Shown here one piece after another: positions 23,987 to 57,922 of a stretch of 64,000 nt of DNA (position 1 is its first letter; each line of letters starts with the position of its first letter). The stretch comes from an uncultured Bacilli bacterium (lineage in GTDB: Bacteria; Bacillota_I; Bacilli_A; RFN20; CAG-288). The translations under genes were made by a program, and so were the position numbers. Below the pieces are notes generated by a model that was not told the origin of the DNA, ran no database searches, and saw only the letters and a list, made by a program, of their open reading frames with translations. Where the stretch lies: NCBI GenBank assembly GCA_944372245.1, contig CALVYN010000002.1, forward strand, positions 4,065 through 68,064, given 5' to 3'.

Positions 23987-24639
23987 CTATAGCCCTCCAT
24001 TCTTCCTTGGTATCTGCCGTTACCAAGGAGATTATCAGAATCATAGGATATAAGAGGAAGAGATGTAGGATGAAAGGCAAAAGATAAAATAAAAATTTCA
24101 ATAAAGAAACTAGTGGTATAAAACTAGCATTTTCACAAAAAGAAAATGGATTGTATATTGAGATGAAGCATTCCTTCGGCATTTCTAATTGTGCTGCTGC
24201 TATAGGAGAAAAACTAACGAGATAGCTATTTGATGGTCAGCTCTATTTTGCATGAACGATTCAATTTGCTGTCCGTTTTGCGGGGACTTTAGCCCTTCTA
24301 GGCGAACATTAATCCAGTTGAGAGACGATTGCTGATCCTTCGAGAAAGGGCTGCTTCTGAACGATTTCTCACATGAATGAGAAATGTTTCATTTTCGATA
24401 TACTTCGACTTTCTAATATTAAAAGAAAGTTAATTTGTATTTCAGGAAGCGTTTTCAGGTCGGATAAATACAACTTTGAGGATACAAGTTATATCGGTTT
24501 GTTGATTTATCCGCTTTCTAATTGGGTTTTTGAGGGTTCCGGTCATTGGATTTCTCATCGATAAAATGTAAGAATATGCAAGTCCGAAGTTATCCTTATT
24601 TTTCATTTCTCCAAAATTCTTTAGCTCGAGGAGGTATGT

Positions 24640-25347
24640 GTGGCAAACAATAAGCACAGAAGCACCTGGATGATTGCGGGTGCAGTCGGAGCGGGCCTAG
24701 CCGTGGTCGGCGTCGGCCTCTGCTTCTTCTTCTTGGCCAACGGTGAGCTGGCCGATAGAAACGATGGCAACGTCAACGTCGATCCCGTAGAGGGTCCCTA
24801 TGGGACGCTCACCGCGACCATGGCGGATAGCTCCATCGCCCTGCTGGGCACCGGTGACAACAGCGGATACGTGGATATCGATGGCGTGGAAGACCTCAGG
24901 ACCAGCGTGGTCTTCAACCTCTCGGTCGCGCCCGCCTTCATCGATGAGAACCTCAACTCGACCATCCGGTTCGACATCACGCTCAAGAGCGCCCTCCCCA
25001 CCGTGGAGGCCGCAGGCGATCTGATTGGCCAGCGCGAGGGCGAGAGCTGGACCTACATCGAGTTTGAGCCGGTCAGCCTGACCATTGCGACCGACGACTT
25101 CGTCTACTCTTCCGAGACCGGGCGCTTCCTCTACGAGTCGCCCGAGGTCGGCTGCTCGTTCGTCTGGGGCAGCTTCTTCAACGGGATGAATCCCCAGCTG
25201 TACTACAACGGACTCTTCGCTGGCGAGTCGCCCGCCCTCGTGCCCAACCCCGATAACTTCCGTCTCGTCACCGATGAGCTCAATGCGATGGAGAAGGCGT
25301 TCGCGGGCTCGCAGATCGATCTGCAGCTGGCGCTGTCGACCCTCTAG
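24640..25347 (+). CDS. Secreted protein with N-terminal signal anchor; candidate SipW-cognate (TasA/camelysin-like architecture)
   Basis: N-terminal TM WMIAGAVGAGLAVVGVGLCFFFLANGELAD followed by beta-rich about 200-aa body; GTG start per ORF track; placed directly upstream of S26B signal peptidase gene. Confidence 0.5.
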   Translation: MANNKHRSTWMIAGAVGAGLAVVGVGLCFFFLANGELADRNDGNVNVDPVEGPYGTLTATMADSSIALLGTGDNSGYVDIDGVEDLRTSVVFNLSVAPAFIDENLNSTIRFDITLKSALPTVEAAGDLIGQREGESWTYIEFEPVSLTIATDDFVYSSETGRFLYESPEVGCSFVWGSFFNGMNPQLYYNGLFAGESPALVPNPDNFRLVTDELNAMEKAFAGSQIDLQLALSTL

Positions 25348-31795: not shown

Positions 31796-32524
31796 ATGGT
31801 TAAGATGAGAATGGCTCTGATCGTGGGGTTAGCCGCCCTGGCCATCGGCAGCGCGGGCACGGCCGCGTTCATCTTCGGCAGCCGCAAGGCCGTCCAGGGC
31901 AACGTGGGCTTCGATGCGGATTCGGGCAGCTACGACACCGACGTCCTGCGCCCGATCGGCCTGCCCGAGAGCGTGACCTACGTCGCGGATTCGGCCCGGG
32001 CCTCCACGGTCGCTGACGGCGGCTACGAGACTGTCGCCGACCTGAACCTGGGAGCGGACAGCCCCATCCCCGAGACCGACCAGTCCGCCTTCTTCGTGAA
32101 GGCGAGCTTCGGCTATGACCCGCAGAAGGCTTCCGCCTGGATCGAGAGGAACTGCCACACTTTCAGCTGGCTGTACGCCTCGCTGGTCCCCGCGGATGCT
32201 TCGGCGTTCGCAAAGAACTTCGCCAGCGCGGAGGCGGCGGCCTATCTGGTCTATACCGGCACCGAGGTCGCCCCGGCCTACGGCTCCGGTGTGGCGATTG
32301 CTCCGCTCGGTACGCTGACCGACGGCGATCGGACGGGTCTGGGTTTCGGCGAGGTGTTCTACGAGGGAACGGACCTCGCTCAGTTCTTCCAGCTGGGCAT
32401 CAGCGCGGATCAGAAGTTCGATCTGATCTTCGCCCTGCCTGTCGGCGAGGAGTTCAACCTCGAAGAGGTCAAGACGTTGGATTTCAGCATCGGTCTGAAT
32501 GTCAGGGAGGTGAAGTATGAATAA
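31796..32524 (+). CDS. Small secreted protein; candidate SipW-cognate substrate
   Basis: N-terminus MALIVGLAALAIGSAGTAAFIFGS resembles SipW-cognate signal (GT-A-x-F-x-F). Confidence 0.5.
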   Translation: MVKMRMALIVGLAALAIGSAGTAAFIFGSRKAVQGNVGFDADSGSYDTDVLRPIGLPESVTYVADSARASTVADGGYETVADLNLGADSPIPETDQSAFFVKASFGYDPQKASAWIERNCHTFSWLYASLVPADASAFAKNFASAEAAAYLVYTGTEVAPAYGSGVAIAPLGTLTDGDRTGLGFGEVFYEGTDLAQFFQLGISADQKFDLIFALPVGEEFNLEEVKTLDFSIGLNVREVKYE

Positions 32525-35500
32525 GAGGATTCTCATCAATTCGCTGGTCGGCGGCACCGTCGTGGCGGGCCTGTCCCTGCCCCTAGCGCACGCCAGCTTT
32601 TCATTTGCCGACTACGGCGTCCTGGAGGATGGCACCATCTCCTCGGTCGCTCCTGCAGAGGGCTACGACTACACCGTGACCTTCGCTGAGGGCAACGCGA
32701 CCTCCAGCGATTCGAAGACCACCACCCTGCCCGAGGCAATCGGCTTCCAGGAGGGGGCGGAGTTCACCCCGGAGGCCATCGAGACCACTCCCGCAAAAGA
32801 GGGTTATGCCTTCGATGGCTACTACACCGATGCCTCCTGCACCACGGCCTACAACTTCTACACCAGCGTCGATTCCGACATGACCCTGTACGTAGCCTTC
32901 ACTCCTCTGGACAGCTATTCCTATACCGATAGTTCCCAGAACGTCTTCACGGCCAGCAGCAGCCTAGATCTGAAGGAGGACACCGTCGATATCGGCGGGA
33001 TCAAGGTCTTCAAGTACAGCTCCTCGGCTAAGAATACCGGCGATGGCCAGTACACCCTGAACCTCGCCACCACCGCTCTGGACGACGGTGCGACCTACTC
33101 GCTGCAGGTCTATGGTAAAGATAAAGAAGGAAGGGGGGATGTTTGGAACTCTAGCGTCTTTCTGCCTAGCCAGAATGACGGACGGGTCATTCGCTCTAAC
33201 TCCAAGTTTTTTACCCTTGTCCTCCAGGATGATCTGGTCATCTCCAACGGGTCGACTCTCCAGATTGGCGGCTGTTCCTCCCTGGTCGGCAATGGTATCT
33301 ACTGCGATCTCGCTAGCGATAACTTCGCTCTGGATCTCAACGGACACAATCTGATCGTCGAGCCCGGTTCGAACCTTGAGTTATATGGCCTTCTGACCGA
33401 TTCCACCAAGAAAGGTATGGTCGTGGTCGATAGCGGCGCTTACATCAAGGTGAAGATGTCGGTCTACAACGGTGGAGGTTCGCAGCTGTTGACCGCCAGT
33501 TCCTACTATGTGAATCCCTTCCCCTTCTATGGCTTCCCTGCTCTGGATGCGAATATCCGCTTCTACGCCGGCGCGGAGATGACCGCAGTCATGTCGGCGG
33601 GAACCAGCAGCCAGGGTGTGGTGGTCGATGTGCCTTTCATCGGCAAACCCCTGCCTGCGGATTCGGATGAGACCGCAGCCATGCTGATCCTAGAGTCTAA
33701 AGATGCCAATTCCCCCGGGTACCTCGACTTCCGCCACAATATGATTCCTGCTCCCCGCGGAAGCTTGAATGCCTACCGGGTGTGGGACACCCAGTATCGC
33801 GAGTACTTCTCCTTCCACGACTGCCTCATGACACTCGGCTCGCTCGCAATGAAAGTATCAATGGCTTCGATCGACTCGGCCGAGTTCCTCTGGGAGCTGC
33901 CGGGCAACAGCGATATCACCCTGGATAACTGCGATCTCTACATCGACCACCAGTTCCAGCTCAATCCCGGTCTCAACTTCTATTCCGATAAGGATTCCAA
34001 CATCATCTTCCGCTGCAATTCTGTCGACCCCTGCGGCATCGTCGCTCCTTCCAAGCTCTTCTCCACGGCCGTGGCCGACAACATCTCCAACCTCGGCTCC
34101 ACCACCGCCGGTCACATCATGGCCGATCTCAGGGGCAAGGAGCAGTCGCTGATCACGGTCATGGGCGACATCAGGTTCGAGTATCCCGAGGGGAGTGCCA
34201 AGGTTGATCAGGTCACCTTCCTTGGAGGATATTTCAACCTGTCGGATCGGGCTCTCGCCTCCGTTCTCGCTGCGGCTGAGAAGGGGCAGGTCACGCTCAT
34301 GTCCAAGGGTCAGCTCGCCAACTTCCACTACGTCAACTCCTGGAGTAGCAGATGGGGTGTGGCCAGCTACTACGTCTATCCCCTCATCGCCAATGGCGTC
34401 GCCTACACCAATGACCATCTGGATGGCGGTCTCAAACCTTTGGATGGAAAGATCGGTTCGGGCATCTACACCGATGGGACGAATTACTATTCCTACTTCA
34501 ATGTGGATAACGAGCGCCCCGACGACTTCGGTGAGGGAAACTTCGAGCTCAGGAAGATCGACTACGATGCGACGACTCACTCCTACACCATCGCCGGCGA
34601 CGACAGCGGACAGAAGTATGCCTACTTCGCTGGTATCTCCGTCCCTGTCTATCTGTTCCAGAAGGATGGCAAGAGCTGGGTCACGATGTCCGATATGCTG
34701 ATAGACAGTGCGGCTTCGAGCTACGACTTTGTCATTACCTACGACGAGGCGAGCGGGGGCTATCTTCTGGCTAAGACACAGACCTACGATTCTGGCGTCG
34801 AAGATATTTCCATCGCTGTGACTCTCAAAGCGGGTAACAACTGTGCAGCGGTGGCTGACGTTCAGCTGACCGAAAAGATCGGTGCCACTTTGAACCTGAC
34901 CCAACTGGCTTCTAAGTATGGTTTCACAACCACTAGTTCTGAGGCTAAGAACAATTTTGAGGTCGAGGTTACTGGCGGCGAGACGACGTCTATCAGTGAG
35001 ACAACTCTCGTGATCGACCTCAATCTCGGTCTGGAGATTCTGGAGAGCAAGAGCATCACCATCACCTTCAATTATGGTGGCAGCTCTGGCGGCGGAGGCG
35101 ATGGCTGCATCTTTGCGGATGCTCCTGTCCTGATGGCCGACGGCTCGACCAAGCGGGCCGATGAGGTCAAGGTCGGCGATATCGCTCTGGCCTGGGACTT
35201 CGAGACGGGCCGGGTTAAGGCGAACCGCGTCTTCTTCTACGAGATGTACGAGCAGGACATCTTCGCTGTGTGGATCCAGCTGGCGAACGGCGAGGAGCTG
35301 CGCATCGCCTGCCCTCACGCGCTCTTCGACTACAGCGAGCGAAAGTTCTTCACCGTCACCACCGAGAACTACACCTCGATCGTCGGCCGCGAGATCGCCA
35401 TCTTCAACGGCGTGGACAGCGGCCTGTCCTCCACTAGGATCGTCTCGGTCAGGGGACACCGGGAAAGGCGTGTCGTTGGAAACATCGAGACCGCACACAC

Positions 35501-35777
35501 TCTGAACTTCTTCTGCGGTGGGGCGCTCAACGCCGATGCTGTCTACGTGGCTAAGTTGCCCTTCGAGGTCGGTGCGGACTTTGCCTACGACCGGAAGGAT
35601 GTGGCCGAGAGCATCAGCAGGTACGGCCTGACCAAGTACGAGGTGTTCAAGGACTACATGAATTTCGATAACTTCGACTGTCTCAACGGCCAGTACGTCT
35701 CCATCTGTATCGGTAAAGGGCTCTTTACGCTCGACTACCTGTTTGAGATTGCCAAGTACTATCTTGGCGGCAAGTAG
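32517..35777 (+). CDS. Giant secreted protein (1086 aa) with C-terminal Gly/Ser linker, Hint/intein-like autoprocessing domain and about 85-aa C-terminal tail
   Basis: N-terminal signal LVGGTVVAGLSLPLAHASFSFADYG; C-terminus GGSSGGGGDG-CIFADAPVLMADGS...VKVGDIAL (Hint block A starting with Cys) ... RRVVGNIETAHTLNFF (TxxH / intein block F-like). Confidence 0.65.
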   Translation: MNKRILINSLVGGTVVAGLSLPLAHASFSFADYGVLEDGTISSVAPAEGYDYTVTFAEGNATSSDSKTTTLPEAIGFQEGAEFTPEAIETTPAKEGYAFDGYYTDASCTTAYNFYTSVDSDMTLYVAFTPLDSYSYTDSSQNVFTASSSLDLKEDTVDIGGIKVFKYSSSAKNTGDGQYTLNLATTALDDGATYSLQVYGKDKEGRGDVWNSSVFLPSQNDGRVIRSNSKFFTLVLQDDLVISNGSTLQIGGCSSLVGNGIYCDLASDNFALDLNGHNLIVEPGSNLELYGLLTDSTKKGMVVVDSGAYIKVKMSVYNGGGSQLLTASSYYVNPFPFYGFPALDANIRFYAGAEMTAVMSAGTSSQGVVVDVPFIGKPLPADSDETAAMLILESKDANSPGYLDFRHNMIPAPRGSLNAYRVWDTQYREYFSFHDCLMTLGSLAMKVSMASIDSAEFLWELPGNSDITLDNCDLYIDHQFQLNPGLNFYSDKDSNIIFRCNSVDPCGIVAPSKLFSTAVADNISNLGSTTAGHIMADLRGKEQSLITVMGDIRFEYPEGSAKVDQVTFLGGYFNLSDRALASVLAAAEKGQVTLMSKGQLANFHYVNSWSSRWGVASYYVYPLIANGVAYTNDHLDGGLKPLDGKIGSGIYTDGTNYYSYFNVDNERPDDFGEGNFELRKIDYDATTHSYTIAGDDSGQKYAYFAGISVPVYLFQKDGKSWVTMSDMLIDSAASSYDFVITYDEASGGYLLAKTQTYDSGVEDISIAVTLKAGNNCAAVADVQLTEKIGATLNLTQLASKYGFTTTSSEAKNNFEVEVTGGETTSISETTLVIDLNLGLEILESKSITITFNYGGSSGGGGDGCIFADAPVLMADGSTKRADEVKVGDIALAWDFETGRVKANRVFFYEMYEQDIFAVWIQLANGEELRIACPHALFDYSERKFFTVTTENYTSIVGREIAIFNGVDSGLSSTRIVSVRGHRERRVVGNIETAHTLNFFCGGALNADAVYVAKLPFEVGADFAYDRKDVAESISRYGLTKYEVFKDYMNFDNFDCLNGQYVSICIGKGLFTLDYLFEIAKYYLGGK

Positions 35778-36766: not shown

Positions 36767-36829
36767 TCGAAAGAAATGCAATCTTGCCAATAAAATATGA
36801 AGCTGAACTGTATAAGGGGTGGAGGCAGA

Positions 36830-37348
36830 ATGTCCAGCGATGAGATACTGAGTGCTCTGCGCGCCATGAAGAGCGGTGATATGGACGGCTTCGAGCCGTT
36901 CTACGAGCAGACCAAGCGCATGGTCTTCTTCGCAGCCAAGGCGGTCCTGAAGGACAACGCCCGCTCCGAGGATGTCATGCAGGATGTCTATATCCGTTTC
37001 CTGGAGATGCTCGACCGCATCGAGGAGGACCGCGGGGTCGTCGGTCTGCTGGTCAAGATGGCGCGCAATCTCGCTCTCAATATCCTCGAGCGCGAGCAGC
37101 GCTCCGTCGAGCTGGACGAGAACCTCCACGGGTCCATCTCCGCGACTGACAATCTGGGTTCCGACCTCTTTGAGCGCATGCGCAAGCTCCTGGATGACGA
37201 TGAGTACGAAATCGTGATCCTGCACGTCGTGGATGAGCTCAAGCACCGGGAGATTGCCGAGATGATGTCGCTTCCGCTGGGGACTGTGACCTGGAAGTAC
37301 AACCGTGCCATCGCCAAGCTGCAGAAAGGATTGGGTGATCTGAGATGA
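36830..37348 (+). CDS. ECF-family RNA polymerase sigma factor (sigma-70 regions 2 and 4)
   Basis: Region 2 DVMQDVYIRFLE, region 4 HTH REIAEMMSLPLGTVTWKYNRAIAKLQ; start at MSSDE. Confidence 0.8.
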   Translation: MSSDEILSALRAMKSGDMDGFEPFYEQTKRMVFFAAKAVLKDNARSEDVMQDVYIRFLEMLDRIEEDRGVVGLLVKMARNLALNILEREQRSVELDENLHGSISATDNLGSDLFERMRKLLDDDEYEIVILHVVDELKHREIAEMMSLPLGTVTWKYNRAIAKLQKGLGDLR

Positions 37349-38394
37349 ACGAGAACGACATCGAAAGGCTCATCCGCGAGGAGAGTCAGCGGGTGGAGAT
37401 CAAGACCACCGCCGCCTCGATCCTCGAGCGCTACCGCATCGAGGAGAAGGTGAAGAAGACGTCGAAGAAACCCTGGTATCGTCGCCCCTCCTTCATGGTG
37501 GGCGCCCCGGCTTTCGGCATCGTGGCGGTTCTCTCCATCGGTCTCGGCACCTATTTCGGCCTCGGCGCGGGCGGAGGCGGCCAACCCTCGGTCGGCAGCA
37601 GCGGAGGCGGCCAGGTCGTGATTCCTCTGGGCGACACCAGGATTCAGGCGGCCTCCTATGAGGTTCTAGCCGGCATGAGCTTCATCGGCTCAACGGGCAG
37701 CGATACTCAGGCCGCAGCTGTCAGGCGTGCCCGGCAGGTCAGCGAGACGCAGTTTGAGCAGATCTGTGCCGCCTTCGATAGCCACTACGGGATGATTGCC
37801 ACCTTGGAGTCCTACTCCGCTAGCGGCTTCGTCTACACCCCTATCGCTTCCGACGACCCCTCGATGCCCTACTGCATCCAGATCGCCGACTTCAAGTTCT
37901 ACTACGATGCACCGCTGCAGGACGAGGATGAGACGCTGATCCAGGGCTACACCACCACTCTGGATGGCCAGCGCCTGCAGACTGTCCGCATCGAGAGCGA
38001 GCAGGAGTATGAGCCCGGCGAGAGTGAGAGCGAGATCGAGGTCACGCTGATCAGCGCCGACGGAACCTCGGTGACCATCGCTCAGACCAACGAGAGCGAG
38101 GGCAGCGAGTCCGAGGATGAGTTCTCCCTCATCCAGCGCGATGCCCGCGGCCGCGAGCTGACCGAGATTAGCTTCCAGCTGGAGAGCGAGCACGGCCAGA
38201 CCGAGAAGACCTTCGACATCGAGGTGTCCGAAGGGCGAGAGCTCGAGTGGTCCTACACCATCTTCGATGAGACTTCCACGAGCATGAAGCTCGCCTTCGA
38301 GGGCGAGGATGGGGAGATCTCCTATCGCAATCCTATCCTGGTCGAGCTCGACCCTCGGGTCTACACCTATGGCGAGCTGGAGTATCGGCCCTAG
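37345..38394 (+). CDS. Putative membrane-anchored anti-sigma factor (single TM, acidic Glu-rich extracytoplasmic domain)
   Basis: 4-nt overlap with sigma-factor stop; TM AFGIVAVLSIGLGTYFGL; no enzymatic motif. Confidence 0.5.
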   Translation: MNENDIERLIREESQRVEIKTTAASILERYRIEEKVKKTSKKPWYRRPSFMVGAPAFGIVAVLSIGLGTYFGLGAGGGGQPSVGSSGGGQVVIPLGDTRIQAASYEVLAGMSFIGSTGSDTQAAAVRRARQVSETQFEQICAAFDSHYGMIATLESYSASGFVYTPIASDDPSMPYCIQIADFKFYYDAPLQDEDETLIQGYTTTLDGQRLQTVRIESEQEYEPGESESEIEVTLISADGTSVTIAQTNESEGSESEDEFSLIQRDARGRELTEISFQLESEHGQTEKTFDIEVSEGRELEWSYTIFDETSTSMKLAFEGEDGEISYRNPILVELDPRVYTYGELEYRP

Positions 38395-38439
38395 ATAGCT
38401 TGAGAGGCTACAGCGGAGTTTGGGCTCTCTGCCCGAAGT

Positions 38440-39130
38440 CTGTTGCAGCCTTTTTAAGTGGAGATTCAGAAACTGAGTCACAGAAGTAGGTGTGCAGATA
38501 GTAGAAAATTAGTATTTTCATAATTCGATGTTTTGAACTCTTAAAATGAGCCCAAAACGTTCTGAAAGATGTCGTTTACCTGTGTAGATTGTCAGTTTGA
38601 GTCTCGTGGCCCTAGGTGTGTATTGTAAGAAACTGAGTTTCAGCCCATTTTTCAGGTGTGTAGATAGTATTTGGACATATTCAAAGTGTGCAGATAGTAG
38701 CAAATTAGTATTTTCAAGAGCAAAATTTTTGATATTCAAAGACGGCCTTTTCGTGGCTTAAACTGATTAAAAACATCTCATTTACCTGTGTAGATTGTTG
38801 ATTTTCAGCCCCGATTTTCTCGGGTGTGTATTGTAAGCGGCAGAGGGGCCCAGGTGTGCAGATAGTATTTGGGCATATTCGAGGTGTGCAGATAGTATGA
38901 AATTAGTATTTGGTTTCTCTAAAAAATACACTTTTGACACAGGCTTTCCCTGGAGTCGAGTGCACAGTTTAAGTGAGTCTTTCGTGGGTTTTCTTCTATA
39001 TAGATAGAAGTAGCGAGTCCATTCGATTTCAGAGGCTTAGAACAAGTCCGAAAAAAATTTTTAAATTCACCAATAAACTCACCTGCTGGTCGGTATATAG
39101 GGTGCAGGCAGGAAGAAAGACCTGCAAGAG
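38440..39130. repeat. Non-coding tandem repeat array: about 200-bp unit x about 2.3 copies containing 9 copies of motif GTGTG(C/T)A(G/T)AT(A/T)GT(A/C)
   Basis: Motif copies begin at 38490, 38582, 38616, 38656, 38686, 38788, 38824, 38854, 38884; shared blocks attagtatttt and tcatttacctgtgtagattgt repeated in register. Confidence 0.75.
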
Positions 39131-39151
39131 AGAAACAAGGAGCATCAAGAT

Positions 39152-40027
39152 ATGAGAAACAAGATCATCGCCGCCATCGCCCTGCTGGGCACCACCCTGT
39201 CCCTGGCCAGCTGCAAGGGAACCGGAAGCAACCCTAACAGCTCTGGCACCAACGGTGACCTGACCGCTCAGGCCGAGTCTCAGGTCGCTTTCCAGATGGT
39301 GACCGCCTCCTCCCTCCTCCCCAGCCTCGGCATCGTCAATCGCGCCATCGACCCCGCCCACCAGAATATCCTCGACCGCGCTGAGCAGATCGAGCTGTTC
39401 TTCCTCAACACCGCCGACTCCATCAAGGTGACCGCTCAGGCTTCCGACCGCCCCGAGTACGAGCACATGGAGGTCGTCACCTACCTCGACGATGTGGATG
39501 AGACCAGTCGGATGACCTTCTACTACAACTCCTTCAACCACACCGAGCACGACGACTGGGACGAGATGGAGTCCGAATCCTTCATGAATGGCATCGTCCT
39601 CGTCGGTGACCAGGAGCTCCCCTTCATCGCGGAGAGCGAGTCCGAGAGCGAGGGCTGGGACGAGGAGGAGTCTTCTCTCGAGGTGAAGATCTTCACCGGC
39701 GAGACCCGCCGCAGCTTCGTCTCCGCCAAGCGCGAGATCGAGATAGAGGACTTCGAGCGCGAGGAGAGCTATGTCTACACCGCGGTGGAGAATGGCCGCG
39801 TGGTGGAGTCCTACGAGCTGGAGCGGGAGAATGACGACGGAGCCGAAGAGACCGAGATCAACATCGTCGAGAACGGTCAGATCTATGCGGTCAAGTTCCT
39901 CACCCGCCGCGGCGTCACCTACATCCAGATCGCCTCGCGCGGCCCTCAGGGTCGCGACTGGGCCACCTACGAGCGGGTGGAGAACGCCGACGGCACCTAC
40001 ACCTACAACCAGGTCCAGACCTGGTAG
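39152..40027 (+). CDS. Lipoprotein with acidic Glu-rich domain
   Basis: Lipobox LSLASC (Cys20) after signal peptide; C-terminal composition resembles extracytoplasmic domain of the neighbouring anti-sigma factor. Confidence 0.6.
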   Translation: MRNKIIAAIALLGTTLSLASCKGTGSNPNSSGTNGDLTAQAESQVAFQMVTASSLLPSLGIVNRAIDPAHQNILDRAEQIELFFLNTADSIKVTAQASDRPEYEHMEVVTYLDDVDETSRMTFYYNSFNHTEHDDWDEMESESFMNGIVLVGDQELPFIAESESESEGWDEEESSLEVKIFTGETRRSFVSAKREIEIEDFEREESYVYTAVENGRVVESYELERENDDGAEETEINIVENGQIYAVKFLTRRGVTYIQIASRGPQGRDWATYERVENADGTYTYNQVQTW

Positions 40028-40146: not shown

Positions 40147-40854
40147 ATGGGTAAGATACTGAAGAATGTCACGGGAGGGAGCAGCGATTTCTTTCGGCAG
40201 CTCCTCGATCCGGAGGATGACAACATCCTGACTCTGATGGATGAGGATGGAAACCCTGCTCGCTTCGAGCAGATCTTCATCACCAGCGGCACGACCCTGC
40301 CGGGATGGCGCGAGCTGGGAATCAAGCCCGGCTGGCTTTATGTCGTCGTCCATCCCCTGGATGAGGAGAGCTGCTCGGACAATCAGGCCTTCGTCCTGCG
40401 GGTCTCTAGAGATCCCGACGGCCAGGACCGCGAGGCCTATGAGGACAACCCTGCCATCATCGAGAAGATCACCGAGCGCTATCTCGCCGCCCTCACGGGT
40501 GCGAGCGTCGAGACCGCCGCCGATGAGCCCTCGCTGAGGGAGATCGTGACCGATATGGATAATCTCCTCCCCGTTCGTCTGAAGGACCAGGATGGGAACG
40601 ACCTGTTCTTCGAGCAGCTCGCCGTCATCCCCGGCGATGAGATCTCCGACTTCGAGAGCCTGGGCATCGATCCCGATGACCTCTATCTGGTCCTCAAATC
40701 CCTCCGGCCCATCGAGCAGGCGGAGAATGCCGACGGCTGCCTCATCTATCGCCTCGAGGGCGACGACAACCTCTCGCTGGAGGAAGACGTGGAGAGGGTT
40801 CAGGCGGTGTATAGCAAATATCTTTTGATGGTCGCTCAGGCGGCTAGCGAGTAG
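40147..40854 (+). CDS. Tandem DUF1292 domain protein
   Basis: Two copies of the DUF1292-like pattern (ILTLMDEDGNPARFEQIFIT...YVVV and LLPVRLKDQDGNDLFFEQLAVI...LYLVLK). Confidence 0.55.
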   Translation: MGKILKNVTGGSSDFFRQLLDPEDDNILTLMDEDGNPARFEQIFITSGTTLPGWRELGIKPGWLYVVVHPLDEESCSDNQAFVLRVSRDPDGQDREAYEDNPAIIEKITERYLAALTGASVETAADEPSLREIVTDMDNLLPVRLKDQDGNDLFFEQLAVIPGDEISDFESLGIDPDDLYLVLKSLRPIEQAENADGCLIYRLEGDDNLSLEEDVERVQAVYSKYLLMVAQAASE

Positions 40855-50559: not shown

Positions 50560-51675
50560 ATGGGTGTTGAACAGGAGAATAGGAAGAAGCTGGGCTTTGG
50601 TCTGATGCGCCTGCCCAAGAGGGATGGGGTGATCGACTATGAGCAGGTGAACGCGATGGTCGACGCCTTCTTAGCGGACGGCTACACCTACTTCGACACC
50701 GCCTATGTCTACGAGGGTTCGGAGGAGGCCTTCAGGCGCTGCATCGCCACCCGCCATCCTCGCGACTCCTACACCGTCGCCAACAAGCTGCCGGAGTGGA
50801 AGCTGTCCGAGACGGTTAGCTGTGACGACCTGCTCAACGAGTCGCTGCGCCGCTGCGGTCTGGACTACTTCGACTTCTACCTGATCCACTCCCTGGAGGA
50901 GGACCACATGGAGATGTGCGACCGCTGGGACTGCTTTTCCTTCATGAAGAGGGCCAAGGCCGACGGGCGCGTCCGCCACATCGGCTTCTCCTTCCACGGC
51001 ACCCCCGCCCTGCTGGAGAAGCTTCTCAGCGAGCATCCCGAGGTCGAGTTCGTCCAGCTCCAGATCAACTACCTGGACTGGGACGACCCCAAGATCGCCG
51101 CGGGCGAGTGCTATCGCATCGCCAGGGCCCACAACGTGCCCATCGTCGTGATGGAGCCGGTCAAGGGCGGCACTTTGGCCAACCTCACCCCCGAGCAGAA
51201 GCAGGTGTTCGACTCCTTCGAGGAGGCGGGCAGCCCCGCCTCGCTGGCCGTGCGCTACGCGGGCAACCTCCCCGGCGTCTTCACCGTCCTCTCGGGCATG
51301 TCCAACCTCGAGCAGGTGCAGGACAACCTGAAGACCTACGATGACCTCAAGCCCCTGACCGCGCGCGAGAGCGTGCTCCTGGGCCGCCTGGTCTCCCTCT
51401 TTAGGGGCACCCGCTCGATCGGCTGTACCGCCTGCCGCTACTGCACCGAGGGCTGCCCCATGGGCATCAGGATTCCCGACATCTTCGCCATCTACAACAG
51501 ATATCTCTACGACGGCGATCTGGCCGCAGCCAGACAGAGGTATGAGGCTCTGATCGACGAGGGCTCCAGCCGCGCTTCCGACTGCATCGCCTGCGGCCAG
51601 TGCGAGGGTGTCTGCCCCCAGCACCTGCCCATCATCGAACTCCTGCGCGAGGTGGCCGAGAAGATCGAGAGCTAG
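50560..51675 (+). CDS. Aldo/keto reductase family oxidoreductase with C-terminal 2x[4Fe-4S] ferredoxin-like domain
   Basis: AKR N-terminal YFDTAYVYEGSEE; C-terminal Cys clusters CTACRYCTEGCP and CIACGQCEGVCP. Confidence 0.8.
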   Translation: MGVEQENRKKLGFGLMRLPKRDGVIDYEQVNAMVDAFLADGYTYFDTAYVYEGSEEAFRRCIATRHPRDSYTVANKLPEWKLSETVSCDDLLNESLRRCGLDYFDFYLIHSLEEDHMEMCDRWDCFSFMKRAKADGRVRHIGFSFHGTPALLEKLLSEHPEVEFVQLQINYLDWDDPKIAAGECYRIARAHNVPIVVMEPVKGGTLANLTPEQKQVFDSFEEAGSPASLAVRYAGNLPGVFTVLSGMSNLEQVQDNLKTYDDLKPLTARESVLLGRLVSLFRGTRSIGCTACRYCTEGCPMGIRIPDIFAIYNRYLYDGDLAAARQRYEALIDEGSSRASDCIACGQCEGVCPQHLPIIELLREVAEKIES

Positions 51676-51822
51676 CTTATTAGCTGTTTCCCAGGTTTGG
51701 GCGCAGTGTGGATGAGCATCCTCATAGGAGGGAGCTCATCTTTATTTTTATCTCGCATAATCTTTGTGAAGATTAGTCTAGAATCTCTGCTGATTCGATC
51801 GCGAGGGAGGAACTCACGCACT

Positions 51823-53193
51823 ATGAATCACGATCAGAAAGATCAGGACGAGTCCGCACCGAGTCGAACGGACACGCCTGAAATTCAGCCCGGCGGGGAG
51901 GGTATTCCCCCTTCAGCAAAGGGCCCCAAGAGCCTGATGAGCCGCTTCAGGACGTGGTACTACAACCGTCACACCTTCGCCCTGGAGCCCGATGAGCCCC
52001 AGGAGCAGCCCAAGCGCAACGCTCGCTTCTTCAAGCGGGTCGGCGGCCGTCCGGTCCTGGGTCCGGTCAAGCTGAAGCTGGTCAGAGCCAGGCGCGGGGT
52101 GAAGGACTTCTTCCTGGACCATCCGCGGACCAACTTCTGCTCCGAGCAGCTCGTGCTCCTGGTGCTGGAGCTGGTCTCAGCCTTCATCTTCGCCTACGGC
52201 TTCCGCGCCTTCATCGCCCCCTCGCGCGTGCCCTGGAATGTCATCGAGGAGCAGGGTCTACAGTTGATCAAGGATAATCCGCTGTTTAACTTCGATCAGG
52301 CTCAATACGAGGCCCTGGACCTCGCGACGGCCGCCAGCCTGGTCAACCCCAGCCACCTGGTCTCGGGCGGCGCCTCGGGTATAGGTCAGGTCCTCACCAG
52401 GATCGTGCTGCTGTGCGGGGTGACGAGCATCCCGAGCCAGACCCTGCAATCCCTCTTCTACTTCGTCGTCAACCTGCCCATCATCATCCTGGGCTTCCTC
52501 AAGGTCGGCAAGAAGTTCACCTTCTACAGCCTGGTGAACGTCATCCTGACCTCGATCCTCATCGATGCAATCCCCCAGAGCTGGTGCGAGCTGATCAACA
52601 TCTACGACGACAACCTCGCCCGCGCCCTGGCCGGCGGTCTGACCACCGGCGTCTCCTCGGGCTTGGCCCTGAGGATCGGCACCTCGACCGGCGGCGTGGA
52701 TATCATCTCCCTGTACGTGGCTGAGAAGAAGGGCACGACGGTCGGCAAGTACTCCCTGATCATGAACACCTGCACCGTCATCACCTACACCGTGCTCTGC
52801 TTCTTCCACGCGCCGGCCGATGGCGGCGTGGACGCCTTCGAAAACGGCGCCACCCAGCTGACCATGTCGCTGTACACCATCATCTACTTCTTCACCCAGA
52901 CCATAATCGTTGACAGCCTGAACACGAAGAACAAGAAGACGGAGCTCCAGGTCTTCACCACATCCAAGGTGATGAACAGGGTCTTAGTCCACGGCTTCCC
53001 TCACGCCTGCACGATCCAGGAGGGCCGCGGAGGCTACTCCGGCGCTCCGCTCAACGTCATCTACATCGTCGTCTCGCACTCCGAGGTCAAGAAGGCCATC
53101 CGGATCATGCATCAGGTCGACCCCTCCTGCTTCATCTCGGTCCTCTCCACCAAGCAGGTCTACGGCAAGTTCTATACCAAACCCATCGATTGA
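51823..53193 (+). CDS. YitT-family membrane protein (DUF161 + C-terminal DUF2179)
   Basis: Polytopic TM core, C-terminal soluble domain NVIYIVVSHSEVKKAIRIMHQVDPSCFISV; long low-complexity N-terminus, start at MNHDQ. Confidence 0.6.
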   Translation: MNHDQKDQDESAPSRTDTPEIQPGGEGIPPSAKGPKSLMSRFRTWYYNRHTFALEPDEPQEQPKRNARFFKRVGGRPVLGPVKLKLVRARRGVKDFFLDHPRTNFCSEQLVLLVLELVSAFIFAYGFRAFIAPSRVPWNVIEEQGLQLIKDNPLFNFDQAQYEALDLATAASLVNPSHLVSGGASGIGQVLTRIVLLCGVTSIPSQTLQSLFYFVVNLPIIILGFLKVGKKFTFYSLVNVILTSILIDAIPQSWCELINIYDDNLARALAGGLTTGVSSGLALRIGTSTGGVDIISLYVAEKKGTTVGKYSLIMNTCTVITYTVLCFFHAPADGGVDAFENGATQLTMSLYTIIYFFTQTIIVDSLNTKNKKTELQVFTTSKVMNRVLVHGFPHACTIQEGRGGYSGAPLNVIYIVVSHSEVKKAIRIMHQVDPSCFISVLSTKQVYGKFYTKPID

Positions 53194-53273
53194 GCCCTCT
53201 AGATGGAGAGACAGGCGCTAAAATCTATTGAAGCGCCTGTTTTTTGTTGCGCTCGATTTTTGGAGGACATACC

Positions 53274-54947
53274 ATGGCCCACACCCTGCAAGAGCTCGCC
53301 GATCTGATCTTTCCCCAGGTGAGCGAGACCGTCGCCGACCTGGAGGCGCGCTATCCGCGCCGCCAGCTGCCCGAAGGGGCGATGGTGACCCGCTTCGCCC
53401 CCTCGCCCACCGGCTTTCTCCACACCGGCTCCCTCTTCACCGCCCTGGTGGCCTACACCGTGGCCAAGCGGACCGGCGGCGTGTACTTCTTCCGTCTGGA
53501 GGATACCGACCAGAAGCGCGAGGTGGCCGGCACCGGCGACCAGCTGGTCGACCAGCTGGCCTGGTTCGGCGTCGTCCAGGATGAGGGCTACATGGGCGCC
53601 GACCGCCCCGAGAAGGGCGCGTATGGCCCCTATGTCCAGTCCAAGCGCCAGGCCATCTACGACGTGGTGATCAAGCACCTGATCCTGGCCGGTCGCGCCT
53701 ATCCCTGCTTCTGCTCCAAGCATGATCTGGACGAGCTGCGCGCGGTCCAGGAGGCCAACAAGGTCGTGCCGGGATACTACGGCAGCTACGCCCGCTGCCG
53801 CAAGCTGAGCCTGACCGAGCAGCTGCGCCGCATCCGCGCCGGCGAGCCCTACGTCATCCGCTTCCGCTCCGAGGGAGACGTGAATCGAACCTTCGTGATT
53901 CGCGACCTCGTCCGCGGCGCCCTGACGCTGCCCGAGAACGATCAGGACATCGTCATCCGCAAGTCCGACGGCCTGCCCACCTATCATTTTGCCCACCTGG
54001 TCGATGATCATTTCATGGGAACCAACTGCGTGACCAGAGGTGAGGAGTGGCTTTCCTCCCTCCCCATCCACGCCGAGTTGTTCAAGGCCATGGGCTGGGA
54101 GGCGCCCCAGTACGCCCACCTGCCCGTGATCATGGTCAACGATGCCGAGACAGGCAACAAGCGCAAGCTGTCCAAGCGCAAGGACCGCGAGGCGGCCGTC
54201 TCCTACTTCATCGAGCAGGGCTACCCCAAGGAGGGCATCATCCGCTACCTCCTGACCATCGCCAACTCCAACTTCGAGGAGTGGATGCGGGCCAACCCCA
54301 GAGCCGACGTCTCCGAGTTCCCCTTCTCCTTCAGCAAGATGAGCCGCGACGGCGCCCTCTTCGACCTGCCCAAGCTCAACGACATCTCCCAGAACTATCT
54401 GGCCTACATGAGCGCTCGCGACATCGCCCGGGCGGCGAACGAGTGGGCGGTGCGTTTCTGCCCCGAGCTGGCGGCCTTCATCGCGGCCGATCCGGAGCGC
54501 TTCGAGGCCATCATGAACATCGAGAGGGACCAGCCCAAGCCCCGCAAGGACTACGTCAAGTACTCCGACATCTACCCCAAGGTCGCCTTCTTCGACCCCG
54601 CGGTCTACGACCGGGTCGAGAACCTGCCCTTCGACGAGAAGGTCAGCCCCGCCGACCGCAGAGCCATCCTGGAGGGCTTTGCCCAGGATATGGGTCTGGA
54701 GCGGACCGCGGACACCTGGTTCGGCCTGGTCAAGGACCTGGGCGCGCGCCTGGGCTTCGCTCCCTCGATGAAGGAGTACAAGGCTGACCCCTCCGCCTTC
54801 AAGGGCTTCTCGGGCGATGTGGCTTCGGTCATCCGCGTGGCGGTGACCGGCTCCCGCAACTCGCCCAGCCTCTATCACGTGCTGAAGATCCTCGGCGCGG
54901 ACGAGATCCGTCGCCGCGTGAACCGGGTGCTGGCCACCCTCAGGTAG
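53274..54947 (+). CDS. gltX: Glutamate--tRNA ligase (class I), long form (557 aa)
   Basis: HIGH-type motif SPTGFLHTGS, RLEDTD (GluRS-type rather than GlnRS DDTNP), KMSKS-type KLSKRK. Confidence 0.8.
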   Translation: MAHTLQELADLIFPQVSETVADLEARYPRRQLPEGAMVTRFAPSPTGFLHTGSLFTALVAYTVAKRTGGVYFFRLEDTDQKREVAGTGDQLVDQLAWFGVVQDEGYMGADRPEKGAYGPYVQSKRQAIYDVVIKHLILAGRAYPCFCSKHDLDELRAVQEANKVVPGYYGSYARCRKLSLTEQLRRIRAGEPYVIRFRSEGDVNRTFVIRDLVRGALTLPENDQDIVIRKSDGLPTYHFAHLVDDHFMGTNCVTRGEEWLSSLPIHAELFKAMGWEAPQYAHLPVIMVNDAETGNKRKLSKRKDREAAVSYFIEQGYPKEGIIRYLLTIANSNFEEWMRANPRADVSEFPFSFSKMSRDGALFDLPKLNDISQNYLAYMSARDIARAANEWAVRFCPELAAFIAADPERFEAIMNIERDQPKPRKDYVKYSDIYPKVAFFDPAVYDRVENLPFDEKVSPADRRAILEGFAQDMGLERTADTWFGLVKDLGARLGFAPSMKEYKADPSAFKGFSGDVASVIRVAVTGSRNSPSLYHVLKILGADEIRRRVNRVLATLR

Positions 54948-54950
54948 GCC

Positions 54951-56132
54951 ATGCGCATCGGGCTCTTCACCGACACCTATCTCCCCGACATCAACGGGGT
55001 CGCCACGGCCGTCGACACCCTCGCGCGCGAGCTGCGCCAGCTCGGGCACGAGGTCTTTGTCGTAACCACCAATCTGGCCGGGCACAGCCGCATCGAGCGG
55101 GAGGGCAACCTGATCAGGATTCCCGGAATCGTCCTGAAGAGCCTCTACTCCTACCGCGTCTCCTCGCCCATCTCGCCCCGCAACTTCGACGTGCTCAAGG
55201 ATGTGCCCCTGGACCTGATCCACATCCACACCGAGTATGGGATCGGCTACTTCGGGCGCATCCTGGCCTGGATCAGAGACATCCCCCTGGTGTACACCTA
55301 CCACAGCATGTACAAGGATTTCACCTACCTGATCTCCCACGGCAACAGGGTGGTCGATGCGGCGGTGGGCAAGTTCTTCTCCGTCTTCTCCCGCCGCTGG
55401 GCCGAGGCCCCGGCCGAATTCACCACCCCCTCGGAGAAGACCGCCAAAGCCCTCAGGTCCTACGGCATCGAGCGCTACATCTCGGTGATTCCTAACGGCG
55501 TGGATCTCTCGGAGTACGCTCCGACTCCGGAGATTATCGAGCAGGCAGAAAAGATTAAGAAAGGATTAGGCTTAGAAGGAAAGACAATCCTCTCCGTCGT
55601 CGGCAGAGTGGGGCAGGAGAAGGGCATCGATTTCCTTCTGGAGTGCCTCAGGCGCTACATCGATGAGACCGGTGATGAGAACGTCAGGATACTTATAGTT
55701 GGCGACGGTCCCTATCTGACCCAGGTCCACGAGAGGGTGAAGGATCTGTGGCTGGAGAACTATGCCGTCTTTGCTGGGCGGGTCCCCCACGACCACATCC
55801 CCGCCTACTACGCCCTCTCCACCGCCCTTCTGACCGGCTCCAAGTCGGAGACGCAGGGACTGACGGTCAACGAGGCCATGGCGGCTCGCTGCCCGGTCTT
55901 GGCGCGCCACGACGCCAGCTTCCAGGCGGTCGAGGACGGGGTGACCGGCTTCTTCTTCTCCGATGCCGACACCTTCACCTCGCGCCTGACCCGCCTGTTG
56001 CATATGGATGCGAAGGAGCGCGAGCGCATGCTCGATACCGCTCAGGAGCGCAACCGCGAGCGCTTCTCGCCCGCCCGTTTCGCTGAGGAGATGCTCAAGG
56101 TCTATGCCCGTGCAATCAGAAAATACTGGTAA
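54951..56132 (+). CDS. GT4-family glycosyltransferase (candidate glycolipid synthase)
   Basis: GT-B fold; N-terminus MRIGLFTDTYLPDINGVA, C-terminal E-x7-E region. Confidence 0.8.
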   Translation: MRIGLFTDTYLPDINGVATAVDTLARELRQLGHEVFVVTTNLAGHSRIEREGNLIRIPGIVLKSLYSYRVSSPISPRNFDVLKDVPLDLIHIHTEYGIGYFGRILAWIRDIPLVYTYHSMYKDFTYLISHGNRVVDAAVGKFFSVFSRRWAEAPAEFTTPSEKTAKALRSYGIERYISVIPNGVDLSEYAPTPEIIEQAEKIKKGLGLEGKTILSVVGRVGQEKGIDFLLECLRRYIDETGDENVRILIVGDGPYLTQVHERVKDLWLENYAVFAGRVPHDHIPAYYALSTALLTGSKSETQGLTVNEAMAARCPVLARHDASFQAVEDGVTGFFFSDADTFTSRLTRLLHMDAKERERMLDTAQERNRERFSPARFAEEMLKVYARAIRKYW

Positions 56133-56934
56133 GGTTGTAATCCTTAAACTCGAGGCGAAGAAGCGCTGCTATTCCTGCCTCTTAAAGGGGGCTGAGAAAC
56201 CCGTCGACCTGTCGGTGGAGACCGTCAGCGAGTTCTCCCTCTGCCAGGGCAAGGAGCTGACAAGGGCAAGGTGGGCCCAGATCCTGGCTTTCGAGCGCCG
56301 CCAGGGGGCTATCGCCAAGGCTCGGAATGCTCTAGCCCGGCGTCCGCTCTCCCGCTCCGAGGTGCGAGCCAAGCTCAAGGATCTCTCGCCCTTAGAGATC
56401 GAGAAAGCCCTGGACCAGCTGGAGGATGAGGGCCTCATCGACGACAGGGCTCTGGCTGACGAGCTGGCTCAGGAGTATGCCGCCAAGGGTCTGGCCGGGT
56501 CGGCGATTGTCGTCCGGCTGGTCAAGAGGGGCATCAGCAGCAATCTGGCCCGTCAGGTTCTCCCTGAGTCCGAACCCAGCGAGGAGGTCGCCTATCAGGC
56601 TGTGGCCAGAGCTCTGGGCAGCGCCCGCAGCCTCTCCCGCCGCCTGGCCCAGCGCAAGGCCTACGCCCAGTTTGCCGCGCGCGGTTTCGACTCCTCTGCC
56701 TGCCACCGCCTGTCCGAGCGCCTGGTCGGTGAGGCTTTCGGTGCGGATAGCGAGCGTGAGAGGGTGGCGATGTTGGATAATCTAAGAGCGTGTGTGCGCC
56801 AGATGCCCAGACGTCCGGACGAGACCCTAGAGAGCTATCGCACCAGGCTGTATCGCCGCCTGGTCAGCCGAGGTTTCACCCCGAGCGAGGTCATCGACGC
56901 GCTAGATAAGGAGCTATGCGATGAAGCAGATTAA
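56104..56934 (+). CDS. recX: Recombination regulator RecX (start uncertain; overlaps 3' end of glycosyltransferase gene)
   Basis: Three-repeat helical RecX pattern (RPLSRSEVRAKL, ALDQLEDEGLIDDRALADELA, QFAARGFDSSACHRL); candidate starts ATG 56104 or GTG 56110. Confidence 0.6.
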   Translation: MPVQSENTGKVVILKLEAKKRCYSCLLKGAEKPVDLSVETVSEFSLCQGKELTRARWAQILAFERRQGAIAKARNALARRPLSRSEVRAKLKDLSPLEIEKALDQLEDEGLIDDRALADELAQEYAAKGLAGSAIVVRLVKRGISSNLARQVLPESEPSEEVAYQAVARALGSARSLSRRLAQRKAYAQFAARGFDSSACHRLSERLVGEAFGADSERERVAMLDNLRACVRQMPRRPDETLESYRTRLYRRLVSRGFTPSEVIDALDKELCDEAD

Positions 56935-57922
56935 GGATCTTCAAGGCGAGGACGCGGTCGGTCGCATCAGACAGCCCTTCCTCATCAAGTCGTGCGAGGA
57001 GGGAGCGACCAACACTTCGGGTGCCCTCTATCTCAATATCACCCTGGCGGATGCCACCGGCACCATGGAGGCTCGCAAGTGGGATATGAAGAAGGGCGAC
57101 CGCGAGATCTTCGTCCCCAACACCGTGGTCGAGATCGACGGGAGCATCATCAACTACCGCGGCAAGAACCAGATCAAGATCAACAGCGGCACCAAGCTCG
57201 ACCAGTCGACCATCGACCGCTCGCTCTACGTGCCCCACGCCCCGGTGTCCGTCCCCGACATGAAGGGCGAGCTGAGGGACCTGGTCAACTCCATCCAGGA
57301 CGAGCAGATCCGCGAGCTGACCCAGGCCATCATCAACGACACCTGGCCGCAGTACTCGACCCACCCGGCTGCGGTGACCGTCCACCAGGCCTACGAGAGC
57401 GGATTGCTCTTCCACAGCATCAGCGTCTGCAAGGTCGCCCTGGCCATCGCCGACCTGTACCCTGGCACCTTCCACCGCGACTATCTGATCTGCGGCTGCC
57501 TGCTCCACGATATCGGCAAGACCTGGGAGCTCTCTGGCCCCGTCTCCACCAAGTACACCCGCATCGGCAAGCTGGAGGGCCACATCAACATCGGAGCCAT
57601 CCTGATCAACAACAAGTGCCACGAGCTGGGTCTGGACGAGGAGAAGACCGAGCTTCTGACCCACATCCTCTTCTCTCACCACGGCCTGCCCGAGTACGGC
57701 TCGCCGGTCGTGCCCAAGACCGCCGATGCCTTCCTGGTCCACCTGGCGGACGACTGCGACGCCAAGGTCAACGTCATCCAAAACTATCTGAAGACCGTCC
57801 GGCCCGGCGAGTTCACCGCCAGGATCCCCTGGATGGACAACATCGAGCTCTACCGCCCCACCTTCGACCGCGACGATGGCGCTCCCGAGCCTCTGGAAGT
57901 CCCTGAGAAGGCCCAGAAGTAA
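56921..57922 (+). CDS. yhaM: 3'-5' exoribonuclease YhaM (OB-fold + HD domain)
   Basis: N-terminal OB fold, HD motifs HSISVCKVA and LLHDIGK, length about 330 aa. Confidence 0.8.
   Translation: MKQIKDLQGEDAVGRIRQPFLIKSCEEGATNTSGALYLNITLADATGTMEARKWDMKKGDREIFVPNTVVEIDGSIINYRGKNQIKINSGTKLDQSTIDRSLYVPHAPVSVPDMKGELRDLVNSIQDEQIRELTQAIINDTWPQYSTHPAAVTVHQAYESGLLFHSISVCKVALAIADLYPGTFHRDYLICGCLLHDIGKTWELSGPVSTKYTRIGKLEGHINIGAILINNKCHELGLDEEKTELLTHILFSHHGLPEYGSPVVPKTADAFLVHLADDCDAKVNVIQNYLKTVRPGEFTARIPWMDNIELYRPTFDRDDGAPEPLEVPEKAQK

Follow-up and report, generated by a model that had tools for sequence, protein, structure and literature searches.

The 757 nt between a putative anti-sigma factor gene and a lipoprotein gene hold a non-coding higher-order direct-repeat array, which is known from one species only. 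The array is composed of a unit of about 197 nt which is present 2.3 times, with periods of 196 and 198 nt. Our tentative reading is that the array is a set of DNA recognition sites for a putative sequence-specific protein, in which the conserved blocks are, or formerly were, under selection. A functionless variable-number repeat is nearly as likely, and both readings are discussed below together with several less probable ones. All coordinates refer to the window, i.e., the whole stretch of 64,000 nucleotides (64 kb) which was analysed.

Location and architecture of the array

The gap runs from the stop codon of the anti-sigma gene (38394) to the ATG of the lipoprotein gene (39152), and its measured length agrees with the original prediction, which had put it at about 750 bp. 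Its GC content is about 40% vs. about 60% in the flanks and about 60% in the genome; other intergenic regions of the same genome are likewise AT-rich. The neighbourhood is of the housekeeping type, with genes and an operon for pyrimidine biosynthesis, ABC transporters and a large surface protein. A Pfam scan of 30 ORFs (18448-43865 and 50560-62788) found Flg_new repeats, a weak DUF1292 match and pyrimidine genes of the PyrK/PyrD-B type, and gave no rep, par, integrase, transposase, cas or regulator genes. This Pfam content suggests a Clostridia-like organism, in agreement with a canonical extended -10 promoter in front of a tRNA gene and with the single, distant relative among species-representative genomes, which is an uncultured Clostridia bacterium. 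The 349-aa membrane protein encoded beside the ECF sigma factor has a short N-terminal region, one hydrophobic helix and an acidic external domain; it has no Pfam match, and that it is an anti-sigma factor is plausible. The terminator which follows its gene has a folding energy of -37.4 kcal/mol (z = -5.97), and none of 200 shuffles folds equally well. It should be noted that the sigma gene could also start further upstream, from an open ATG at 36797. The features of the region are as follows.

36787..36814, + strand: ECF-type promoter of the sigma gene, CCAATAAA-N15-GTATA; 43 nt upstream of the sigma gene start, outside the array
36830..37348, + strand: ECF sigma factor gene; 172 aa as called, Pfam Sigma70_r2 and r4_2; gene call in L001
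37345..38394, + strand: putative anti-sigma factor gene, coding for a 349-aa single-pass membrane protein; its start overlaps the sigma stop
38398..38459, + strand: intrinsic terminator of the sigma/anti-sigma operon; long hairpin overlapping a U run
38456..38930, + strand: the whole repeat array (left edge, unit 1, unit 2 and partial unit 3); about 475 nt of the 757-nt gap
38490..38685, + strand: unit 1 (blocks A1, B1, C1, D1); missing in strains L003 and L087
38490..38503, + strand: core A1, GTGTGCAGATAGTA; exact
38580..38593, + strand: core B1, CTGTGTAGATTGTC; 2 mismatches
38616..38627, + strand: core C1, GTGTGTATTGTA; short variant
38656..38669, + strand: core D1, GTGTGTAGATAGTA; exact
38686..38883, + strand: unit 2 (blocks A2, B2, C2, D2); from seed-based repeats and alignment
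38686..38699, + strand: core A2, GTGTGCAGATAGTA; exact
38786..38799, + strand: core B2, CTGTGTAGATTGTT; 2 mismatches
38824..38835, + strand: core C2, GTGTGTATTGTA; short variant
38854..38867, + strand: core D2, GTGTGCAGATAGTA; exact
38884..38914, + strand: partial unit 3, which is the A3 block only, GTGTGCAGATAGTATGAAATTAGTATTTGGT; 84% identical to A1
38884..38897, + strand: core A3, GTGTGCAGATAGTA; exact
38931..39050, + strand: non-repeated tail of the species-specific stretch; without counterpart in L012 and L013
38996..39009, + strand: decayed tenth core, CTATATAGATAGAA, within the non-repeated tail
39070..39097, + strand: ECF-type promoter of the lipoprotein gene, CCAATAAA-N15-GTATA; 82 nt upstream of the ATG, downstream of the array
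39152..40027, + strand: lipoprotein gene; 291 aa, signal peptide, lipobox LASC, near-orphan family

The periodicity is far beyond chance. Exact 10-mers common within the gap form about 75 pairs in total, which concentrate at lags of 196, 198, 206, 208, 394 and 30 nt, and about 0.3 such pairs are expected in a random sequence of this length. The two full units and the partial third one correspond well to the unit of about 200 bp, repeated about 2.3 times, which had been described originally; the repeats are real, but the length of about 700 bp given for the array is too high, since the repeated part covers 38456-38930 only. With an overall identity of only 62%, the units are too diverged for Tandem Repeats Finder, which misses the array; it was recovered by seed-based repeat finding followed by alignment. 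All six reading frames of the array contain stops throughout or small ORFs coding for repeat-derived nonsense peptides. The original description of the array as non-coding and tandem is upheld.

Four types of blocks, A, B, C and D, make up the conserved part of the array, and each block contains one core, (G/C)TGTGYAGATWGTA, always on the same strand. Block A is GTGTGCAGATAGTAGmAAATTAGTATTTTCA (31 nt), block B is TTTACCTGTGTAGATTGT, block C is GGTGTGTATTGTAAG and block D is CAGGTGTGYAGATAGTATTTGGrCATATTCrAr. The sequences AATTAGTATTTTCA and TTTACCTGTGTAGATTGT, which had been pointed out as common to the units, do occur in both full units. There are nine cores, of which five are exact, two have 2 mismatches (CTGTGTAGATTGT) and two are the shortened GTGTGTATTGTA without AGA. 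The original count of nine motif copies is thus right only when the degenerate ones are included, and a tenth, decayed copy has to be added; the statement that each unit carries the motif three times is wrong, as a full unit has four cores, one in each block. The cores sit in DNA of 36-43% GC and are irregularly spaced, at distances of 30, 36-40 and 90-100 nt.

The core is highly specific for the array. With the pattern GTGTGYAGATWGTA and at most 2 mismatches the 64 kb gave 7 matches, every one of them within the array and on the + strand, vs. a mean of 0.28 matches in shuffles. No other copy of the 14-nt core is present in the remaining window, half-motifs of the core are also essentially confined to the array within the window, and no other k-mers of at least 13 nt are common to the array and the rest of the window.

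Variation between units and between strains

Unit 1 and unit 2 are 62% identical overall, with a strongly bimodal distribution of this identity. The four block types stand out as runs of 18, 15, 15, 15 and 13 identical columns, and the segments between the blocks are unalignable and of unequal length. The alignment contains 76 identical columns in runs of at least 12, a value reached by 0 of 10,000 permutations. The conservation is specific for the block type, A being conserved with A, B with B, C with C and D with D. Judged from the alignment, such a bimodal identity cannot have resulted from uniform neutral divergence of a duplicated unit. Because the blocks are near-identical and the spacers have diverged beyond alignment, we take the blocks to be under selection, now or formerly.

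Selection has a serious competitor in concerted evolution, brought about by recombination at the cores. The context TGAkTTTCAGCCC...ATTTT is found upstream of core D in unit 1 and upstream of core C in unit 2, and the context GGCCCTAG / GGGCCCAG has the reverse arrangement (upstream of C in unit 1 and of D in unit 2). Such a swap is a sign of recombination at the cores, a process by which they could become homogenised in the absence of selection. Moreover, L091 differs from the other strains in that A1 and D1 have swapped their C/T states. Together, the swapped contexts and the exchanged Y states suggest an exchange between copies. Tracts of 15-18 nt which are kept according to block type are not the usual outcome of gene conversion.

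The same architecture, with a gap of 755-757 nt, is found in six independent assemblies (the window, L004, L005, L006, L091 and L095), and is therefore not an assembly artefact. The gap is 560 nt in L003 and L087; exactly unit 1 is missing, and the junction lies inside the 31-nt A block, which in most strains is identical between A1 and A2. Unit 1 was apparently lost by homologous recombination between the A1 and A2 blocks, and the suggestion that the array could be a substrate for recombination has thus found support in these two sister strains. They are near-identical, with 2 differences in 2,441 coding positions. A collapse of the repeat during assembly is an unlikely source of the one-unit form, because about 150 nt of unit-1-specific sequence are absent and the repeat is shorter than the final k-mers typically used in assembly. 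Strains of one species hence carry either 2.3 or 1.3 units, and a single clade, that of the near-identical L003 and L087, is fixed for the one-unit form.

Point differences are also found. The A1 core of L095 is doubly mutated to GTATTC..., and A1 of L091 has T at the Y position. Among the eight full assemblies 28 of 475 sites in the whole array are variable (5.9%), compared with 35 of 815 sites (4.3%) at third codon positions in the three genes which flank it. The cores have 4 variable sites in 122 (3.3%) vs. 24 in 353 (6.8%) in the array outside the cores, a difference which is not significant in these eight full-length assemblies (Fisher p = 0.19). An earlier indication of core constraint within the species (2/122 vs. 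25/353, p = 0.023) was lost when L095 was added and the set restricted to full-length assemblies. Within the species the array evolves at a roughly neutral rate.

Promoters, related operons and tests for RNA

The motif CCAATAAA-N15-GTATA has exactly two matches in the 64-kb window, at 36787 in front of the sigma gene and at 39070 in front of the lipoprotein gene, where the chance expectation is 0.00. The motif was defined on six promoters from three species, as it is also found directly upstream of both the sigma genes and the lipoprotein homologues in L012 and L013. The gene order sigma, anti-sigma and lipoprotein homologue is common to this species, L012 and L013; the two distant anti-sigma homologues are 50-52% identical and lie next to the sigma gene, and the lipoprotein homologues are 44-45% identical. 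From these promoter sequences we conclude that the lipoprotein gene belongs to the ECF sigma regulon by means of its own promoter, which follows the last full core at a distance of about 175 nt.

The repeat array itself does not contain the motif. Since the motif precedes the sigma gene too, we conclude that the 14-nt core is not the ECF promoter. An array which binds the adjacent ECF sigma factor, as had been suggested originally, or which serves as a decoy for it, has only proximity in its favour, and the decayed tenth copy CTATATAGATAG resembles the promoter -10 region GTATATAG, but with a promoter motif derived from three species and not present in any of the repeats we find it hardly credible.

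The distance between the anti-sigma and lipoprotein genes is 101 nt in L012 and 127 nt in L013, and the 14-nt core was not found in either locus. We conclude that a stretch of about 600 nt (roughly 38456-39050) is specific to the lineage of this species; a gain of this stretch is more parsimonious than a loss in the relatives.

The original prediction also held that the two full units carry different, perfectly palindromic hairpins at equivalent positions, as a sign of compensatory conservation. The palindromes exist, but their positions are not equivalent: GAAACT-G-AGTTTC is located at 38629-38641, between cores C1 and D1, and CCCGA-TTTTC-TCGGG at 38810-38824, between B2 and C2. Both are disrupted in other strains. 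The first is broken in L091 (38637 G>A and 38641 C>A), and the second has 38813 G>A in six of the eight assemblies. RNAalifold on nine unit copies (208 columns) gave -12.2 kcal/mol with a covariation term of -1.9, and no conserved consensus fold across the unit copies. These results speak against compensatory conservation.

The suggestion of a tandemly duplicated small-RNA gene fared no better. Local fold z-scores in the array are between -1.5 and +0.8; the whole region of 495 nt folds mildly better than shuffles on the + strand (z = -2.17), and the minus strand does not. Searches against Rfam 15 gave nothing in the region at the gathering score and nothing credible at E up to 10, the best sub-threshold match being on the minus strand with 20.6 bits vs. 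a cut-off of 65.9. Promoter prediction over 38300-39250 gave no sigma-70-type promoter on the + or the minus strand; elsewhere the organism uses canonical promoters, as seen from a canonical extended -10 upstream of a tRNA gene. One weak terminator-like hairpin with a T-rich tail is present in unit 2; it is not conserved and has no counterpart in unit 1.

A small-RNA reading would make the units tandem sibling sRNA genes, or the array one long RNA in which nine 14-nt sites act as a sponge for a protein or a complementary RNA. That all cores are on one strand, that the + strand is rich in G and U and folds mildly better than shuffles over 495 nt, that blocks alternate with free segments as in sibling sRNA families, and that unit 2 contains a terminator-like hairpin followed by a T-rich tail would all fit with this. 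However, a common orientation is automatic under tandem duplication, the hairpin of unit 2 is weakened in six of eight strains, and no complementary target was found within the 64 kb. As neither strand has a sigma-70-type promoter, the array contains no ECF-type one, Rfam gave no match, local z-scores are near 0 and the consensus fold is negligible, we consider the small-RNA reading quite unlikely.

Known systems, alternative readings and searches in other genomes

The motif pair was not found in 185,579 species-representative genomes (the GTDB set, in which this species is not represented) or in viral contigs, and phage and plasmid records have no similarity to the region. Among contigs of JGI metagenomes, in which this species is likewise not represented, the motif pair is found at 72 loci. 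All of these are satellites of short period and unrelated to the array; in many the period is a multiple of 11 nt, and by contig names only we take them to be of eukaryotic type and mostly from termite and marine samples. A BLAST of the array against the 72 loci gave nothing real. A literature search for the motif returned unrelated primers only. To our knowledge, and judged by eye against consensus sequences, the core has no convincing resemblance to the DnaA box, the sites of CRP/FNR, WalR, PhoP, Spo0A, CodY or TnrA, or the ARG box, nor do we know of a convincing resemblance to VirR sites, Bacillus Ter/RTP, or the promoters of sigma-54, sporulation sigmas and the TcdR type.

Several known systems share some of the properties of the array. 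Intergenic VNTR or minisatellite loci, of the kind that MLVA typing relies on, likewise have non-coding units arranged head to tail, differ by whole units between strains and break assemblies; head-to-tail repetition and a unit number which varies among strains are both found here. Units of a typical VNTR are uniformly similar, whereas here they are 62% identical and composed of near-perfect blocks and unalignable segments. The array is best filed as a new example of bacterial intergenic variable-number repeats with an unusually block-conserved architecture. The iterons of plasmid Rep proteins and the centromeres parC of R1 and sopC of F resemble it in having same-orientation 14-nt copies clustered in AT-rich non-coding DNA. 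The clustered AT-rich direct repeats are indeed present, but their spacing is irregular and not helically phased, there is no adjacent rep or par gene, and the context is chromosomal and housekeeping, not that of a plasmid or phage.

Sibling sRNAs such as OmrA/OmrB, PrrF1/PrrF2, LhrC1-5 and AbcR1/2 consist of tandem units in which conserved blocks are separated by free sequence, and the sponge RNAs CsrB/RsmZ and CrcZ have several copies of a short motif, irregularly spaced on one strand. Unlike these, the array has no promoter, conserved terminator or conserved structure that we could find, and a promoter and terminator for each unit, typical of sibling sRNAs, were not found among the sigma-70-type and ECF-type promoters and terminator-like sites predicted; its motif of 14 nt is also much longer than the GGA-type or CA-type protein-binding motifs of sponge RNAs. 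Conserved repeats which alternate with unrelated segments are reminiscent of CRISPR, where one uniform repeat of 23-50 nt is used. Here there are four repeat types of 15-33 nt, intervening segments of 13-64 nt and no cas gene in the ORFs scanned, in line with the earlier judgement that the array is not CRISPR-like, and the sole foreign match of a segment is a 20-nt k-mer in a low-GC ligase gene on a chimeric scaffold. Simple-sequence phase variation depends on units of 1-9 nt near a promoter or in coding DNA, and the present unit is about 197 nt long and lies at least 175 nt upstream of the promoter. Of dispersed copies, such as BOX or REP/BIME elements have, the 64-kb window contains none outside the array.

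On the reading we tentatively favour, blocks A-D are candidate recognition sites, under selection presently or in the past; an array for an unseen regulator, which had been among the original suggestions, may thus be present. Since no promoter, terminator or conserved fold was found, the sites would most likely be read on double-stranded DNA by a putative sequence-specific protein. The array might then be an iteron-like or operator-like platform 175-615 nt upstream of the transcription start of the lipoprotein gene, and could modulate or insulate the lipoprotein promoter. The sites would be redundant in appearance, because the loss of four cores is tolerated in one clade. The specificity of the core, the bimodal and block-type conservation, the position between terminator and promoter, the lineage specificity, the failure of the RNA readings and the variation in unit number are in favour of recognition sites. 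Against them are the lack of a candidate gene for the binding protein among the 30 ORFs scanned, the irregular spacing, the distance of the array from the promoter, and the near-neutral polymorphism with cores that are not significantly protected. Also the doubly mutated A1 in one strain, the missing unit 1 in one clade, and the absence of the motif from relatives and from every collection searched speak against them. A more far-reaching version, which we consider unlikely, is that the cores together with their type-specific tails are candidate recognition sites of a new kind, forming a platform that titrates or positions a regulator, or a sponge RNA transcribed from a non-canonical promoter, and that the number of units tunes the dose.

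The nearly as likely functionless variable-number repeat would have started from a seed of about 35-40 nt, which was amplified stepwise and then as a unit of about 197 nt in a dispensable spacer; the similarity of the blocks would come from short-tract gene conversion or unequal exchange and not from selection. Such an origin agrees with the occurrence in one species and the absence in relatives, with the different unit numbers of strains, and with a polymorphism at or above the synonymous level in which the cores are not significantly protected. It agrees as well with the swapped upstream contexts of C and D, with the exchanged Y states of A1 and D1 in L091, and with the lack of a detectable promoter, RNA structure or associated gene. 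What it explains less well is that blocks of 15-18 nt (C and B) show 100% identity from one unit to the other whereas the sequences beside them cannot be aligned, and that conservation follows the block type and is not homogenised over the nine cores. Conversion tracts that short and precise are unusual, and pure rearrangement leaves the unique sequences between the blocks without an obvious source. A relic of a lost mobile or replicating element, i.e., origin iterons, a partition centromere, arm-type sites of an integrase or a multi-site transposon end, would account for 14-nt repeats of the same orientation clustered in AT-rich DNA within a genome of 60% GC, for the resemblance of the region to an insertion relative to the relatives, and for recombination at the repeats. 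We find it very unlikely, as other intergenic regions are AT-rich too, rep, par, integrase and transposase genes were not found in the 30 ORFs, the context is housekeeping, phage, plasmid and viral contigs have no similarity, and neither terminal inverted repeats nor a target duplication were seen when the ends of the array were read.

Should the blocks prove to be genuine recognition sites, a cis-regulatory or decoy array would have newly arisen between the operon of an ECF sigma factor and the lipoprotein gene which is its target, and a dosage effect could be tested directly on the alleles with one and two units that occur naturally. Even if the array is functionless, it offers a marker for strain typing in an uncultured species, and it illustrates in detail how bacterial higher-order repeats are built up by nested duplication together with recombination at short cores. 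In both cases the importance is local, confined to a single species with no homologues elsewhere in the searches.

The locus breaks contigs in public short-read metagenome assemblies. Scaffold L010 joins unit 2 to DNA of 25% GC, with an HhH ORF in frame across the junction, and was considered as a case of spacer capture. The foreign DNA derives from another organism, from the C-terminal part of a ligase-like gene with HhH and BRCT domains; because the exact 20-mer GAGCAAAATTTTTGATATTC is the only sequence it has in common with the array, L010 is a chimeric assembly and spacer capture was rejected. L094 is probably a second chimera at the same 20-mer. The array thus accounts both for the contig breaks and for the chimeric scaffold L010 at this locus.

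Promoter-like motif and hairpin of the sigma module

In three species, the ECF sigma gene and the lipoprotein gene each have a promoter-like motif, CCAA(T/C)AAA-N15/16-GTAT(A/T), upstream; the loci are the window, L012 and L013, the latter two being from other species with the same gene order but without the array. A short hairpin lies closely 3' of the predicted transcription start of the lipoprotein gene in all three; the stem sequences differ, and in each case the hairpin is preceded by a conserved GGTGCA.

Promoter-like motifs (ECF sigma gene; lipoprotein gene; forward strand in the window) and hairpins
Window: motifs 36787-36814 and 39070-39097
Window: hairpin 39103-39126, stem TGCAGG/CCTGCA
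L012: motifs about 7433-7460 and 9058-9085
L012: hairpin about 9097-9116, stem GGAGG/CCTCC
L013: motifs about 113-140 and 1749-1776
L013: hairpin about 1782-1800, stem CAAGC/GCTTG

The presence of the motif at both genes defines a small, putatively autoregulated regulon of the sigma/anti-sigma/lipoprotein module, which is otherwise uncharacterised. The hairpin following GGTGCA may be a conserved 5'-UTR element, for which the alignment-based test is weak.

The tRNA pair at 16909-17072 is preceded by a canonical extended -10 promoter, TTGCTT-N19-TGTATAAT (16866-16897), which shows that the organism uses standard sigma-A promoters.

Anti-sigma protein and lipoprotein

ESE repeats are abundant in the lipoprotein (39152-40027) and in the anti-sigma protein's external domain (gene 37345-38394), and both sequences are strongly acidic. 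A colinear alignment of the two gives 23% identity, a non-significant match (E = 2.7). The lipoprotein profile matches an ORF in the distant locus L014 (5848-7065), immediately 3' of a sigma gene. The two proteins may be distant paralogues.

A chimeric and a probably chimeric scaffold at the array

The public scaffold L010 (1-145) is chimeric, and the join falls at the 20-mer GAGCAAAATTTTTGATATTC (window 38718-38737), which occurs both in the array and in a ligase-like gene (C-terminal HhH/BRCT part) of an organism with roughly 25-30% GC. L094 (250-370) is probably a second chimera, with other DNA attached at the same 20-mer. Several Logan and ENA contigs have their ends within the array.

Other genes and gaps

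The gene 3' of the lipoprotein gene (40147-40854; counterparts at 3994-4821 in L004, a same-species assembly, and 1458-2285 in comparison locus L007) is called as 275 or 235 aa depending on the strain. Since the 275-aa form runs into the convergent phosphoribosyltransferase gene, the strains probably differ by a frameshift or in a stop codon.

A predicted surface protein of 1086 aa (32517-35777) carries the Listeria-Bacteroides repeat (Flg_new). It also matches the Hint module, but weakly: the E-value is 2e-4, which does not reach the Pfam cut-off. No sequence is common to the array and the second long inter-ORF gap (23987-24696), which measures 710 nt between ORFs passing the GC3 filter and has 38% GC.
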